A stretch of 28,386 nucleotides of DNA, taken from positions 122,023 through 150,408 of the IMG/VR virus record IMGVR_UViG_3300031994_000017. One strand, written 5' to 3'. Under the pieces are notes generated by a model. It was not told where the DNA came from. It did not search any database and saw nothing but the letters and a program-made list of their open reading frames with translations. Every line of letters starts with the position of its first letter. The stretch's first letter is position 1. Origin of the DNA: a virus (Duplodnaviria; Heunggongvirae; Uroviricota; Caudoviricetes). This document shows positions 2,807-24,314 of this stretch, in pieces. A program made the position numbers and the translations under genes.

Positions 2807-3442
2807 ATGGAATAGAAACGTTTTCCTGCGGATACTGTATTAAGTTATTAGACTTTTTTAAATGATAAGAAGATAAACGGAGAATTATATGCTTTGATGT
2901 AGAGATATAGTAAATATGAAGTGTTGGATAAGGATAAAAATAAATTTAGAACTTATGTAATGAAAAAAGATTTACCTTCATAGAAGGTTATTATGGAAGC
3001 ATTAGATATAAAAAGTCCAAAGACTCTTAAAGCGCATATAAATTATTTATTAGAGTAGGGATATATTGTTGAGGGAGATAAGTGTTATGATTTGCCTGAA
3101 AAAGAAGATATTTATTTTTTAATACCTTTAGAAACTTTGTAGTATTTAAATGATAATTGTAAAGAGCATGTTATAAAGATATATATTTATTTAGGATAGC
3201 GATATAAAATGGTTGAAAAAGAAGATAGAGATTATGTTTTTACTTTAGAAGAAATAGGGGAGCATATTGGAATTGCGGTTAAAAATCATAGTGCGGGTTA
3301 TAGAGTTGTAAAAAATGCTTTGGATTTGTTGTAGAATAGTGGCTTAATAGATTATGTGGGATATTTTGATGGAGTTTCTTAGAAGAAGAAGCTGCGTGAA
3401 TTCAGTTTTGAGTATCACAAAAATGGATGTAAAAACATTTAA
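2807..3442 (+). CDS. tandem winged-helix DNA-binding protein, candidate replication initiator (code 15, 211 aa)
   Basis: GAAGGAGGGA RBS, ATG 2807, TAA 3440-3442; open only if TAG=Gln (9 TAG, no CAA/CAG). Two wHTH-like segments: LDIKSPKTLKAHINYLLEQGYIVE and FTLEEIGEHIG...VVKNALDLLQNSGLIDY. Confidence 0.8.
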
Positions 3443-7298: not shown

Positions 7299-7934
7299 CT
7301 ACAAGGTGATTTCCGCATAGGGAGAGGGAGTGTTGAAATAATATTCAGCGCAAGTGAAAAAATATTCAGTCGGAATATCCATGTCAAAAAATCGGTCATT
7401 CTTGTGAAAGACTTCGGGATAGTCTCTAATAAAGCAGGCCCGTAAATAACTCTCTAGGCCCTCGGCAGGCAGGTCTCCGCAATCCACAATTCCGCAAATC
7501 TTAACCTTGACAATTGGAAAACCGGTTTTCTGATAGCTTGCGATTTCTTGCTTTAAGCGGTCTAGGCAAGAATTAACAGTTGTTCCAATCTTTGTGAAAA
7601 GCGGTTTATTTGCGTCATTATAAAACTTGAAGAAATAGCACTTCTGACTCTTTTTCTTGCTATCCTTGCCTTGTGCGGTTTTCTCATATTTGATAACCAC
7701 ATTTCCCCAATTAATGAGAAAATCATCAAATTTGCTTGTTCTTCTGCGGTTGGTCTTGGGAGGCGTTTCCGCGTATGCGGTCTTGGCTTCATTCATGAGA
7801 TACTTATAGCCGCAATAGTCGGCAATAGTGGAAGCCTTTACGCCGATTTCTTCCGCGATTTCCGCGTAACTTTTTTCTTCAACAAAACGAAGATACAGAG
7901 CCTTTAAGACTCTTTCCTTTTTACTATCAGTCAT
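7299..7934 (-). CDS. N-terminal HTH plus GIY-YIG/T5orf172-like C-terminal domain protein
   Basis: KSYAEIAEEIGVKASTIADY is HTH-like; CYFFKF..FTKIGTT..DRLKQ resembles GIY-YIG/T5orf172; ends at TAG inside a terminator hairpin. Confidence 0.7.
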   Translation of the reverse strand: MTDSKKERVLKALYLRFVEEKSYAEIAEEIGVKASTIADYCGYKYLMNEAKTAYAETPPKTNRRRTSKFDDFLINWGNVVIKYEKTAQGKDSKKKSQKCYFFKFYNDANKPLFTKIGTTVNSCLDRLKQEIASYQKTGFPIVKVKICGIVDCGDLPAEGLESYLRACFIRDYPEVFHKNDRFFDMDIPTEYFFTCAEYYFNTPSPYAEITL

Positions 7935-8434: not shown

Positions 8435-8809
8435 TTACGCCTCCACCACAATCTGATAGAAGATATGATTCTTGCTCACAACCCTAGCCACCTTATTATC
8501 AGCGACAAGGTCCCTCATAAGGAAAGTCACCTTCGGGCCAGTCAGCCCAGCATCGGGAATGAGAACCTTTGCGATTGTGTCGGAGGAGTAAAGAGTCTCC
8601 GGCTCCATAGCAGAGAGAATATCCGCACGAAGGCCAGCGTCTGTTTCTCTCTTTGCGGTCTGGGCCTTGGTAGGCTTACGCTCCGCAGAATTACGTCTAA
8701 TGGTCACATCACGAAGCTGGACAAGCTTCTCCTGGACTTCGCCCTCAGTGCGGTCAATGGCAACATTCAGAGCGTCCACATAGGTCATCTTCTTAGTAGC
8801 AGTAGTCAT
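8435..8809 (-). CDS. probable winged-helix DNA-binding protein, paralog of 10022-10393
   Basis: 124 aa, AAAGGA RBS, own promoter; C-terminal LYSSDTIAK..GPKVTFLMRDLVADNKVARV..FYQI has a wHTH pattern. Confidence 0.8.
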   Translation of the reverse strand: MTTATKKMTYVDALNVAIDRTEGEVQEKLVQLRDVTIRRNSAERKPTKAQTAKRETDAGLRADILSAMEPETLYSSDTIAKVLIPDAGLTGPKVTFLMRDLVADNKVARVVSKNHIFYQIVVEA

Positions 8810-8904
8810 AGTATCAATTCCTTTCTGGTTTATTGGGTTTTCCTTCCCTTGATTACGCTCTTATTATAACATACTTTTTGAAGTTTGTCAAGAGGGAATT
8901 TCAA

Positions 8905-9360
8905 ATTTCTTTGAAATTTTTTAGCAATACGCGAGAAGTCCTGTCGCCTATCTTCTTATTTTACCGAGGCGCGACCATCGGAAGGAATTTGCCGCGCCCT
9001 CTTGACATTGCTATTATAGCACATTTTGTGCTGTTCGTCAAGGGGTTTCTGAAAAAAATCTCTAGAAAATTTTTTTCATCCTCGTGCGTTCCTATGAGAG
9101 TCATCTATCTCAATCTTATAACCGCTTTAGGTCTATTGCGACTTCCAACCGCCGCCCCACACCAAAGAAGTGGCTCAGAGGTATCTCCCCTTGACATTGA
9201 CATTATAGCACATTGTGTGCTATTTGTCAAGGGGTTTTTCAAAAAATTTTTGAAAAAGTTTTTTCGTTACCGAGTATCCAAAACCAAGAGAGCCCTTTGG
9301 GACTTTTATCTCTTGCCCCTTGACATTGATAGTATAGCACATTTACATCCAAAAGTCAAG
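8905..9360 (-). ncRNA. three tandem promoter-driven ORF-less units (candidate small RNAs)
   Basis: Promoters at 9013-9041, 9202-9230 and 9331-9359 are each followed by NNCAATGTCAAGRGG and 70-130 nt of hairpin-rich sequence with no RBS-ATG ORF. Confidence 0.45.
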
Positions 9361-16944: not shown

Positions 16945-17142
16945 TTAAATCAAGCCCCACCAATACAGATTCAGCGTAAGGTCAAAACCAACGCTAAGCA
17001 CAGAAATAATGATTATGCTGAGAACCTTTTCGATCAGAAGGCTTGTCTCATCATTCACGCAACAGACAATACCAAGAGCAACAACACCGAGGAAAATGAC
17101 GCTGGTGATGATAGTAAAAAGAATGTTCTCCATTTTTTCCAT
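16945..17142 (-). CDS. small two-helix membrane protein (65 aa)
   Basis: Start moved to MEKMENIL; two hydrophobic segments; own promoter. Confidence 0.7.
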   Translation of the reverse strand: MEKMENILFTIITSVIFLGVVALGIVCCVNDETSLLIEKVLSIIIISVLSVGFDLTLNLYWWGLI

Positions 17143-17231
17143 TTTTTTAATTCCTTCCCGGTTTGGTGGGTTTTCCTTCCCTCTTTCTGATGTTATTATA
17201 GCACATAGTTGCGGGAATGTCAAGAGTTTTT

Positions 17232-17402
17232 TTAAAGTTCCCAACCTTCTGGAAATTCATCATTATATTCTTCATGAACAGAAATCAGATAATACTCATC
17301 GGGGTTGAAGCGATTCAGAACCATAGCATCAGCATAAGAATAGCCATAAATCCGGTCAATTTCGCCAGTAGCCTTTTTCTGAATAACGTAAGAATAATAC
17401 AT
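17232..17402 (-). CDS. hypothetical protein (56 aa), paralog of 21727-21864
   Basis: Start MYYSYVI (AAAGGAG RBS); IYGYSYADA motif. Confidence 0.7.
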   Translation of the reverse strand: MYYSYVIQKKATGEIDRIYGYSYADAMVLNRFNPDEYYLISVHEEYNDEFPEGWEL

Positions 17403-19230: not shown

Positions 19231-19446
19231 TCATTTTACGACCGCCTTGTAGCTTTCCCACTCGGTCAGGGTCAGGTGCCGGCTCAGGAGTAACTTTTTT
19301 AATTTATGTCTAGCATTATTCGTCTTTCTTTTGGTTGATTGGGTCATCTCTAGCTTAAACAGTTCATCAATCTCTGATTCACTAAAGCGCAACATAATTT
19401 GTTCAGCTTGGGCTTCTCTTAAAATTTCAGTGTTAAAGTTATACAT
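19231..19446 (-). CDS. hypothetical protein
   Basis: 71 aa, AAAGGA RBS, second gene of the 19705 unit. Confidence 0.7.
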   Translation of the reverse strand: MYNFNTEILREAQAEQIMLRFSESEIDELFKLEMTQSTKRKTNNARHKLKKLLLSRHLTLTEWESYKAVVK

Positions 19447-19492: not shown

Positions 19493-19705
19493 TTAAGCTT
19501 CCCCATAGTATCTTGCCATTTCTTCCATTTCTTCATCTGTAGGGAATTTAAATTCCATAATCGGAATATTTGTTTCTTGCGCTTTCCATTCCGTGATGAT
19601 TTCTTTCATTTCTTCCTCGGTGGGAAAATCGCTTTTCATATTTTCCCATTCTGCGACTTCTTCCATAGCATCGGCAACAACTTCCCAGTCATACATAGTA
19701 TACAT
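19493..19705 (-). CDS. acidic hypothetical protein with internal FPT(E/D)EEM repeat
   Basis: 70 aa; DFPTEEEMKEI and KFPTDEEMEEM. Confidence 0.75.
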   Translation of the reverse strand: MYTMYDWEVVADAMEEVAEWENMKSDFPTEEEMKEIITEWKAQETNIPIMEFKFPTDEEMEEMARYYGEA

Positions 19706-19835
19706 AACTTTAATTCCTTTCCGGTTTAATGGGTTTTCCTTCCCTGTTTCTGATTAGATTATAGCGTTTTTAGTGTCCAATTATTGGGACTTTTTAGAGC
19801 ATTTCATTTTTTAGGTTTTTGATTTTTTATTTGTA

Positions 19836-19927
19836 TATACTGTATTTTTATACAAATTTCGCCTGCGGCGGGCTTAGCGGAAGTTCGGAATTCACATTCA
19901 TTCACGAGAATTAAAAAGCAAGGGTTT
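19836..19927 (+). repeat. 92-bp exact direct repeat, copy 1
   Basis: TATACTGTATTTTTATACAAATTTCGCCTGCGGCGGGC...AAAAAGCAAGGGTTT, identical to 21617-21708. Confidence 0.9.
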
Positions 19928-19965
19928 ATTTGTCAAGTGTTTTTTGAAAAAAAGAAGAAGATTTT

Positions 19966-20187
19966 TTAATCTTCTTCTTTTTCCCAATATTCTTCAAGAG
20001 CTTTGTTAAATTCTTCTACTGTTAAAACAGTGTTTCTGCCATCTTCAAAACAAGTAGTCAAATAGAAGAATGGCCCTCTAAGACCGGCGGCACAGCTAAC
20101 AGCTTCTTCCACGGAAACATAATCATCACCATGACATTCACCAGTTTCAGCATTGTACAAAGCGTAAGTTCCAGTGTATTTTTTCAT
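19966..20187 (-). CDS. hypothetical protein
   Basis: 73 aa, AAAGGA RBS, palindrome-class promoter. Confidence 0.75.
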   Translation of the reverse strand: MKKYTGTYALYNAETGECHGDDYVSVEEAVSCAAGLRGPFFYLTTCFEDGRNTVLTVEEFNKALEEYWEKEED

Positions 20188-20300
20188 TTTTTAATTCCTT
20201 TCCGGTTTAATGGGTTTTCCTTCCCTGTTTCTGATTAGATTATAGCGTTTTTACTGTCCCATTATTGGGACTGAATTGTTTTTAGGTTCTTTCCGGTGGT

Positions 20301-20522
20301 CTATTCGACCACCGGAAAGCCCATGCTATAGGATTCAATCCGCAGGAGTTTGGCAATGCCGCCACTTTCTTCCCAGACTTCCCGAACAGCGGAAAGAAGT
20401 TCGCCGCCCTCGCGGTCAATAGCAACCGCCGCTTTGAAGAAATCAGATTCTGAGCCGTAGCCAGCTTTATAGAAGTTGCCGCGGGCAGTATAAGCAGTGA
20501 GAGAGTAGGTGTAAAGAGTCAT
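20301..20522 (-). CDS. hypothetical protein
   Basis: 73 aa, palindrome-class promoter; TAG stop in loop of a 12-bp TTTCCGGTGGTC/GACCACCGGAAA hairpin. Confidence 0.75.
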   Translation of the reverse strand: MTLYTYSLTAYTARGNFYKAGYGSESDFFKAAVAIDREGGELLSAVREVWEESGGIAKLLRIESYSMGFPVVE

Positions 20523-20771
20523 GATTTTAATTCCCTTCCGGTTTATTGGGTTTTCCTTCCCTGTTTCTGATTAAATTATAGCGCTTTTACTGTCCAATTT
20601 TTGGGACTGTTTAGGTTATTTGTGTTTCTAGGCTTTCGAATAAATATACAATTATACTGAATTTTTATACAAATTTCGCTCGGCACGATGCCTCGCGAGG
20701 TCGGCGGTTAGTGATCGCTAACAGGTGCTACAAAGAAAAAACAAAGCCCGCTCAAAAGGCGGGCTTTATTT

Positions 20772-20957
20772 TTAGAAATCCTCTACGATCTGACCATTGG
20801 CATTGACAAGATAGCACTCATTAAAATAGTCGCGCCCAATATACCGGATGCACTCGGAGGGGCTACCTTCGAAGTGCTTATAATTGGTTTCACGCTCATA
20901 CACCGTCCACTTTTCTTCCTTGACTTCCTGGCGGCGGCGATTAAAAAATTTTTTCAT
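20772..20957 (-). CDS. hypothetical protein
   Basis: 61 aa, GAGAGGA RBS, palindrome-class promoter, AAAGCCCGC/GCGGGCTTT terminator. Confidence 0.75.
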   Translation of the reverse strand: MKKFFNRRRQEVKEEKWTVYERETNYKHFEGSPSECIRYIGRDYFNECYLVNANGQIVEDF

Positions 20958-21091
20958 GATTTTGGTTCCTCTCTGGTTTATTGGGTTTTCCTTCCCTGTT
21001 TCTGATTAGATTATAACGCTTTTGTTGTCCCATTATTTGGACTGATTTTTTAGATTTTTAAATAAAGCCCATTTTCATGGGCTTTATCTGT

Positions 21092-21292: not shown

Positions 21293-21616
21293 TTTTGAAT
21301 ACCTCTCTTTTCAAATTTTTAGAGCTTCTAACTGCCCCTCACACTTATTATTATACTCATTTTTTCTTTAATTGCAAGCTTTATTTTTTTGAGTTTTTTT
21401 AGTAAAAAATTTAAAAAGTTAGATTTTTTGCCCTTTTTAAATTGCTTTGGTAGACTTTTGGTTGAGAAAAATTGTGATTTGTGCATTTTGTAGTTTGTTT
21501 AAAGAAAAAATAGTTAGTTTGTGTGCAGAATCCACAATGAATAATTACTTAATTTTACTCAATTGCGGGAGTTTAGTAAAATTGAGTAATTTCTGGAAAA
21601 TGTATAATTATTCATG

Positions 21617-21708
21617 TATACTGTATTTTTATACAAATTTCGCCTGCGGCGGGCTTAGCGGAAGTTCGGAATTCACATTCATTCACGAGAATTAAAAAGC
21701 AAGGGTTT
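21617..21708 (+). repeat. 92-bp exact direct repeat, copy 2
   Basis: Identical to 19836-19927; here it continues into a complete AAAAAGCAAGGG/CCCTTGCTTTTT terminator. Confidence 0.9.
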
Positions 21709-24107: not shown

Positions 24108-24314
24108 TCACTCTTTTACCACCGTATAACCATTCTCTTTTAATAACTTAATTGCTTTTGCTACATCCTCACCAATAGCCGCGTCAGTTTTCTATATAGT
24201 TATATAATTATCAATTACACCAATCTCTAATTCATCCCCACTAGCAATGTTAAATCTAGTCCGTAAAGCCTAAGGAATAACTATTCTGCCCAAACTATCA
24301 ATTTTCTTAATCAT
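24108..24314 (-). CDS. abrB: AbrB/MazE/SpoVT-family transition-state regulator (code 15, 68 aa)
   Basis: MIKKIDSLGRIVIPQALRTRFNIASGDELEIGVIDNYITIQKTD... matches the AbrB motif (K.D.LGRIVIP..LR....I..GD.LEI); needs 2 TAG=Gln; GGAGG RBS; not in ORF track. Confidence 0.85.

Follow-up and report, generated by a model that had tools for sequence, protein, structure and literature searches.

A 16-bp dyad takes the place of the −35 element in four phage promoters and recurs beside WYL regulator genes in gut Clostridia

Results

Four tandem cassettes with a dyad at the −35 position

We analyzed a 28,386-nucleotide (nt) stretch of a tailed phage (Caudoviricetes; IMG/VR record IMGVR_UViG_3300031994_000017, positions 122,023 to 150,408), referred to as the window throughout, and focused on four consecutive minus-strand cassettes whose promoters carry a 16-bp dyad, the box, where the −35 element should lie. 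The record is that of a complete phage of 150,408 bp, with terminal repeats and a G+C content of 33.9%, and the window makes up its final 28.4 kb; blastn found no match among deposited phages. TAG was read as Gln in late genes only. Small minus-strand genes are densely arrayed between 6.2 and 19.1 kb of the window, each of them with a strong classical promoter. The four cassettes share one order of elements: the dyad GTCCCA-N4-TGGGAC with zero or one mismatch comes first, a perfect TATAAT begins after exactly 11 further nt, and a ~50-nt leader then runs to a small open reading frame (ORF) (Table 1).

Matches to the box with at most two mismatches numbered 4 in the window against 0.26 expected, a count reached by none of 100 shuffles, and the whole 150,408-bp phage held no further copy even at relaxed stringency. 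This genome-wide scan had been called for by an earlier sequence-only reading of the locus, made without database searches, which had described four cassettes with TATAAT and no −35 hexamer and a box ending exactly 11 nt before the −10 and centered near −32. Both descriptions were borne out in all four cassettes. With the −10 taken as −12 to −7, the box spans −39 to −24 and is centered at −31.5; the best TTGACA match at a spacing of 16–18 nt is 2/6, and CG occupies the position of the TG of an extended −10. A consensus promoter scan paired none of the four box-linked −10 boxes with a −35. The second box had been called a perfect palindrome, which applies to its arms only: the 6+6 inverted repeat is perfect, the 4-nt center is not self-complementary, and 14 of the 16 positions pair.

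The contrast with the remaining promoters of the window is sharp in two elements. On the minus strand we counted 29 promoters of the form TTGACA-N17-TAnnnT, 27 of which have the TG extension. When the four cassettes were aligned with the classical promoters at 17137–17252 and 8804–8919, the −10 and the leader were common to both kinds, the dyad replaced TTGACA, and CG replaced TG. The alignment shows that only the −35 and TG parts are exchanged between classical and box promoters. Having neither a −35 match above 2/6 nor TG, the box promoters have thus lost both elements that give this phage's promoters their self-sufficient strength.

The leader begins at a constant distance, ~6 nt past the −10, and consists of a core CAGAAA-N-AGGGAAGGAAAACCC followed by AAACCRGAARGGAA ahead of the ATG. 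It is not specific to the box, as it is also found behind classical TTGACA promoters in the phage and in 13 other viral records (15 sites). Judged by this distribution, it is a widespread untranslated leader of phages. Readings of the promoters as σ54-dependent, dependent on an extracytoplasmic function σ factor, based on a shifted −35, or of the MerR spacer type were considered by eye and rejected because the spacing or the downstream conservation did not fit.

Table 1. Features of the box cassettes, comparison promoters and candidate regulators, in window coordinates (aa, amino acids; pI, isoelectric point; HTH, helix-turn-helix; wHTH, winged HTH)
Feature	Position	Strand	Remarks
Box 1, GTCCCAATAATTGGAC	19775..19790	minus	Stands in for the −35 of cassette 1
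−10 TATAAT of cassette 1	19758..19763	minus	11 nt downstream of box 1; without TG extension
Conserved 5′ leader, cassette 1	19706..19751	minus	Transcription start inferred
Cassette 1 gene	19493..19705	minus	70 aa, very acidic, pI 4.05, no family match
71-aa gene	19231..19446	minus	pI 9.4, downstream of cassette 1
Box 2, GTCCCAATAATGGGAC	20256..20271	minus	Perfect 6+6 arms
−10 TATAAT of cassette 2	20239..20244	minus	
Cassette 2 gene	19966..20187	minus	73 aa, acidic, pI 4.3, no family match
Box 3, GTCCCAAAAATTGGAC	20592..20607	minus	
−10 TATAAT of cassette 3	20575..20580	minus	
Cassette 3 gene	20301..20522	minus	73 aa, pI 4.85, TAG stop, no family match
Box 4, GTCCAAATAATGGGAC	21027..21042	minus	
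−10 TATAAT of cassette 4	21010..21015	minus	
Cassette 4 gene	20772..20957	minus	61 aa, no family match
Conserved 5′ leader, other cassettes	20188–20232, 20523–20568, 20958–21003	minus	
Intrinsic-terminator-like hairpin and T-run	20737..20773	minus	3′ of cassette 4
Comparison promoter	17137..17252	minus	Classical: TTGACA, 17 nt, TG-extended TATAAT; same leader as box cassettes
Leader after classical promoters	17140–17190, 8807–8850	minus	
Early 211-aa protein	7299–7934	minus	N-terminal σ70 region-4 HTH (Pfam Sigma70_r4_2, 2.4e-6), remainder unrecognizable
SpoVT/AbrB-type protein	24108–24311		
LexA-like wHTH protein	2807–3439		

Three of the four cassette proteins are small and acidic (pI 4.0–4.9). 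None of the four belongs to a Pfam or PHROG family, and Atlas look-ups for those of cassettes 2 and 3 returned only unnamed phage clusters. The gene of cassette 1 is followed by a 71-aa gene and, as we saw no promoter and no T-tract terminator between them, the two are probably co-transcribed, which would place the second gene in the box class as well. A separate regulon of four unknown small proteins had been proposed from the sequence. The separate promoter class and the four tandem cassettes stand, the number of genes is probably five, and the box is not specific to the phage.

The surroundings of the cassettes hold a few features of their own. Read-through of the TAG of cassette 3 (window 20256–20303) would add 13 residues and end at a TAA within box 2. 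A 101-nt direct repeat, 97% identical and containing TATACA-type boxes and a GC hairpin, lies at 19827–19927, between cassettes 1 and 2, and again at 21608–21708, 1.8 kb off; a lone TTGACA at ~19929–19934 is without a good −10. We found no tRNA or Rfam family in the interval, and the neighboring Zn-ribbon gene had no relatives among viral contigs. Farther away, at 1824–2387 on the plus strand, translation with TAG as Gln gives a formate/nitrite-transporter-family protein (Pfam, 1.5e-16), an unusual cargo for a phage.

The box and its spacing in other viruses and in Clostridia

The four box copies belong to one duplicated promoter–leader module ~100 nt long and are therefore not independent observations, so that independent support has to come from other genomes. 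For INDEPENDENCE, evidence independent of the duplicated four-copy module was sought outside the phage. The exact combination of box, 11 nt and TATAAT occurred at 36 loci in 2.9 million viral contigs and at 88 loci in a set of one genome per prokaryote species. Nearly all of the latter were from gut or rumen Clostridia, ~80 genomes of which carry the combination, in the families Oscillospiraceae, Acutalibacteraceae, Ruminococcaceae, and Lachnospiraceae; the few matches outside Clostridia resemble the stems of T-tract terminators. About 45 of the 88 loci represent a single conserved mobile element, and ~40 are independent.

The spacing was assessed by allowing a gap of 1–30 nt between box and TATAAT in the viral contigs, and the 65 loci obtained fell into 23 sequence clusters. 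A gap of 11 nt was seen in nine independent clusters, compared with 0–3 (mean ~0.5) at each other spacing. A peak at 11 nt across unrelated elements indicates that the distance has been selected. The strict box was rare in random samples of Clostridia and a relaxed form, GTCC-N-W6-N-GGAC, was more widespread: followed by 11 nt and TAnnnT, it was present in 40 of 301 sampled genomes, with 59 sites against 34 in the reversed control, and its dominant version was GTCC(G/T)TTTTAT-N-GGACA. Four other box-bearing viral records that we searched whole had a single box each, and, in the vicinity of the box, blastp detected no protein that the phage has in common with the other viral loci carrying it.

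The independent sites repeat the peculiarities of the phage promoters. Among 76 independent box promoters, 73 had a −35 match of at most 3/6 and 42 combined a match within that limit with the absence of a TG extension; in most of the 76, A directly follows the box. These sites also bear on the idea that the dyad has no regulatory role and is an RNA or DNA hairpin, a terminator remnant, or a neutral hitchhiker in a duplicated module. Such an origin would fit the common ancestry of the four copies, the terminator stems found outside Clostridia, and a scan that called copy 2 terminator-like on the plus strand. Nevertheless, the coding strand has no T-run behind the dyad, and the phage copies differ in their arms without compensatory changes. 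The inner pair (positions 5/12) is complementary in just 27 of the 76 independent sites, a count that speaks against a hairpin. Both cores, GTCC and GGAC, and the −10 are invariant, the differences among the phage copies fall where the wider motif is variable too, and the spacing to the −10 is fixed across unrelated elements. We therefore regard a dyad without function as highly improbable.

WYL regulator genes beside the box

To see what accompanies the box, all ORFs within 3.5 kb of independent box sites were clustered. Proteins of ~330 aa with the Pfam architecture (HTH_11)-WYL-WCX were present in six independent box loci. Five genomes were searched whole, and in four of them a box lies immediately next to the matching WYL gene, which ends just upstream of the box, sits in a box-headed operon, or diverges from the box. 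Further adjacent pairs of box and WYL gene were found in the random sample (G015:C11, G137:C4, G301:C165, and G271:C12). A profile of the six box-linked proteins, compared with the PDB, matched DriD (~1e-14), PafBC (1e-7), and PafC (8e-5), and retrieved no CapW or BrxR at E ≤ 0.01. A WYL orthologue was present in 32 of 40 box-positive genomes against 103 of 300 (34%) overall, a co-occurrence inflated by base composition, since 17 of 31 control-hit genomes were also WYL positive.

Repressors with the same protein architecture exist, and the box could instead be a repressor operator, bound by a host WYL regulator of the CapW/BrxR type or by another dimer and released by single-stranded DNA (ssDNA), giving the same output through the opposite mechanism. 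WYL repressors recognize palindromes of ~20 bp, from which ssDNA releases them (PMC11662680), a repressor centered at −31.5 would block RNA polymerase, and the TG-extended −10 of 33 of the 76 host box promoters could work without a −35. On the other hand, strict 11-nt spacing across independent lineages is typical of activators and not of repressors, and the phage promoters and 42 of the 76 others have neither −35 nor TG and hence offer little to repress. Some of the box promoters do drive defense genes, but the proteins linked to the box match DriD and PafBC in the PDB and not CapW or BrxR. With the spacing fixed and the linked proteins of this kind, an operator appears unlikely to us.

Genes downstream of the box in bacteria and mobile elements

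The richest single genome was that of Ruminococcoides intestinihominis CLA-AA-H171 (G003), with at least nine box promoters, several of which share the extended pattern GTCCCA-W4-TGGGAC-AGT...TGTG-N-TATWAT. They head an addB-like gene, a small gene followed by sbcD, cas12a, an ImmA-like gene, and an operon ending in a WYL gene. The box-linked WYL protein of this strain is encoded at L189, 1162–2163, on the minus strand. Elsewhere, the box lies upstream of uvrA, sbcD-sbcC, a DUF2779 protein, PARG, and Thg1 with a kinase, and host box promoters also drive a reverse-transcriptase/AAA pair, DUF262, and other defense-type genes. Among 73 proteins encoded just downstream of relaxed boxes, the commonest Pfam families were RecA (5), NAD-dependent DNA ligase (4, in ligA-recA operons), and HIRAN (2). 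The downstream gene set has the makeup of a DNA-damage regulon to which defense genes and mobile-element antirepressors are added.

In G003, the cas12a-like gene behind its box promoter (G003:C20, 4085–10800; L170) has a verified 10-repeat array of clustered regularly interspaced short palindromic repeats (CRISPR) beside it. With a box promoter in front of such a gene, CRISPR defense may belong to the box regulon.

Host defense genes behind boxes would also suit a decoy, in which the phage boxes would titrate the host WYL regulator and dampen the induction of repair and defense, transcription of the small genes being secondary. Replication would multiply the four sites that each phage genome carries; a tandem series of four is unusual, given the single boxes of the other viral records; and the host promoters that would be starved drive cas12a, the reverse-transcriptase/AAA pair, DUF262, and other genes of the defense type. 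However, each phage box comes with exact promoter geometry, a perfect −10, the leader, a ribosome-binding site, and an ORF, all of which would be superfluous for a pure decoy, and we hold it very unlikely that the boxes act mainly in this way.

The box is also found in mobile elements. The most frequent one, near-unchanged across many Clostridia genera, has an XRE repressor gene, the box promoter, and a gene for an ImmA/IrrE-type protease (e.g., L012, 11364–12600); a 140-nt core is identical in the ~45 genome loci (e.g., L070, L075, and L079). Further ImmA genes lie behind a box at L082 and L181. The arrangement suggests that ImmA-bearing mobile elements may be induced via the WYL pathway. In a group of temperate phages (L007, 8200–9400, and 17 related viral contigs of 30–40 kb), the box promoter is located downstream of a cro-like gene and runs antisense through it toward cI-like, ImmA, and integrase genes, in a layout resembling that of lambda PRE. 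The box as a cI/cro repressor operator was rejected for the group A temperate phages, as the cI/cro operators are a different palindrome. Four loci (L027, L074, L120, and L134) encode proteins of 42–45 aa (G-H/Y-x-E/Q-V-Y ... F-x-ADT-x-x-EA) ~30 nt past the box promoter, and in the first three a truA-like gene comes next. Kinship of the phage cassette proteins with this Oscillospiraceae family was rejected (best E ~1 in a hidden Markov model search).

DNA-binding proteins of the phage

In the complete phage, no WYL domain was detected, the profile of the box-linked proteins matched nothing at E ≤ 10, and homologues of MotA and AsiA were absent (PF09114 and PF09010, nothing at E ≤ 1). The WYL protein was likewise missing from five other viral records with a box, and these records had no homologue of the early σ-region-4-like protein of the phage, a 211-aa protein that may be a phage transcription factor.

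That protein is the candidate if the box is read by a phage-encoded factor in a true MotA-like scheme. Several DNA-binding proteins are present (Sigma70_r4_2, SpoVT/AbrB-type, and LexA-like wHTH), and middle-gene activators are a known theme in phages. Against such a scheme, the same box and spacing drive chromosomal recA, ligA, uvrA, and other genes in bacteria, MotA and AsiA homologues are absent from the phage, and the σ-region-4-like protein is missing from the other five records; translation of the AbrB and wHTH genes depends on TAG read-through, so that their products are probably made late. A phage-encoded reader of the box therefore seems quite unlikely. Since the phage has no WYL, MotA, or AsiA protein and its box is common to host genes, the factor is likely a host regulator.

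These results also bear on how much of the regulatory logic read from the sequence can be kept. Its likening to a MotA box holds for the activator-type layout and fails for kinship with MotA, given the different box and the lack of MotA and AsiA homologues. The proposed dimeric activator of phage or host origin agrees with the dimer-type site and with a likely host regulator; a MotA-like phage protein, or one of the wHTH, HTH, and AbrB proteins of the window, is an unlikely candidate, the box being shared with Clostridia and linked to WYL genes.

Discussion

We think that the four cassettes are probably activator-dependent σA promoters of the DriD/PafBC kind, served by a host WYL regulator. 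They and their relatives combine a fixed distance to the −10, no −35, and, in the bacteria, a regulon of repair genes, as expected for a WYL activator, and the linked regulator is found in bacterial genomes and not in the phage. In the proposed mechanism, a homodimeric wHTH-WYL-WCX regulator of the host would bind the GTCC-N8-GGAC dyad centered at ~−31.5, at the place of the −35, and the bound regulator would help the host σA RNA polymerase to use a perfect −10 that has neither −35 nor TG extension. WYL regulators of the DriD/PafBC kind are switched by ssDNA; the four or five phage genes would then be turned on only when infection yields ssDNA or DNA damage and would form a delayed-early or middle class timed by the damage sensor of the host. 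We infer that the regulator binds the box, that it activates instead of repressing, that ssDNA is its trigger, and that the host of this phage has such a protein.

Several observations weigh against this interpretation. The loci of 29 close WYL orthologues had neither a box within 1.5 kb nor an obvious dyad of another kind, and the recognition helices of the boxless orthologues did not differ clearly from those of the box-linked proteins. WYL orthologues are frequent in control-hit genomes too, and WYL repressors such as CapW and BrxR likewise bind palindromes and respond to ssDNA. The TG extension of ~43% of the host box promoters (33/76) might allow these to fire without an activator, the four phage copies go back to one duplicated module, and none of the 10 spacers in the Cas12a array of G003, a candidate host, matches the phage.

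If the proposed mechanism is true, a large phage in which we found no σ factor or MotA-like activator could time a second gene class through the damage sensor of its host, and the four phage proteins would be candidates for tasks that become necessary after the alarm pathways of the host have been triggered. The combination of GTCC-N8-GGAC, 11 nt, and −10 would be the signature of a WYL-controlled damage and defense regulon in gut Clostridia, and box-driven ImmA genes could provide prophages and mobile elements with a LexA-free route to induction. As R. intestinihominis CLA-AA-H171 is a cultured carrier of the box, the idea is directly testable.

A broader scenario can be offered only tentatively, and we are inclined to doubt it as a whole. 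In it, a virulent-type phage would tie small, mostly acidic, candidate counter-defense genes to an ssDNA-sensing WYL activator that controls repair and cas12a-type defenses in the host, such that the genes come on at the host's alarm, while the boxes might also soak up the regulator. The GTCC-N8-GGAC sites would then mark an undescribed, LexA-independent regulon of gut Clostridia, tapped by prophages and conjugative elements for their ImmA antirepressor proteases.

Parts of this arrangement have precedents. Phages with host LexA boxes are a case in which a mobile element puts the site of a host damage regulator on its own promoter; LexA is a repressor, whereas here a WYL-type site lies at an activator position. 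The middle promoters of T4 pair a σ70-type −10 with an activator box that replaces the −35 and lies near −30, and they serve a delayed class of phage genes. The MotA box itself is a nonpalindromic 9-mer with a TGCTT core, centered at −30 and read by a phage monomer with the co-activator AsiA. The likeness to T4 is thus one of layout, a −10 with a box near −30 replacing the −35, and is meant as an analogy only: the box of our phage is a GTCC/GGAC dyad shared with chromosomal genes of the host, and MotA and AsiA homologues are lacking.

Closer parallels are found among WYL regulators. Our literature search returned DriD, PafBC, DdaA, SiwR, CapW, and BrxR and neither a WYL damage regulon of Clostridia nor phage promoters using one, which is not proof of novelty. 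CapW, of the cyclic-oligonucleotide-based antiphage signaling system (CBASS), and BrxR, of bacteriophage exclusion (BREX), resemble the box-linked proteins in architecture, palindromic sites, ssDNA sensing, and the link to defense genes (PMC11662680, PMC9122601); they differ in that they repress and show no fixed geometry of the activator type, and the profile of the box-linked proteins did not retrieve them from the PDB at E ≤ 0.01. PafBC/RecA-NDp of mycobacteria and DdaA of Acinetobacter are, like the proposed regulator, WYL activators of a LexA-independent damage response with recA and uvrA among their targets (PMC11804915, PMC13010146). DdaA is also linked to phage defense, and PafBC is the second-best PDB match of the box-linked proteins. 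PafBC is, however, a heterodimer with a short nonpalindromic site, and the DdaA motif, CGAC-N7-GTCG, is of the DriD kind.

The nearest relative is DriD of Caulobacter crescentus (PMC13004042, PMC9186387, PMC10853764). Its promoters (didA, bapE, and CCNA_03891) have no −35; the DriD site lies across the position of that element, and its distance from the −10 is constant (PMC13004042). A comparison of the wild-type didA oligo with that having an "optimised −35" (PMC13004042) places the −35 hexamer at positions 7–12 of the 21-bp site. By our own derivation, good to ~1 bp, the DriD site would be centered at about −30/−31, compared with −31.5 for the phage box. The sites themselves are different, ATACGAC-N7-GTCGTAT (21 bp) for DriD and GTCC-N8-GGAC (16 bp) for the box, and the box system belongs to Bacillota and includes promoters on a virulent-type phage that lacks the regulator. 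What the two have in common is a homodimeric wHTH-WYL-WCX protein (proposed in our case), a dyad over a missing −35, a fixed distance to the −10, and a DNA-damage regulon, and DriD is the best PDB match of the box-linked proteins of Clostridia.

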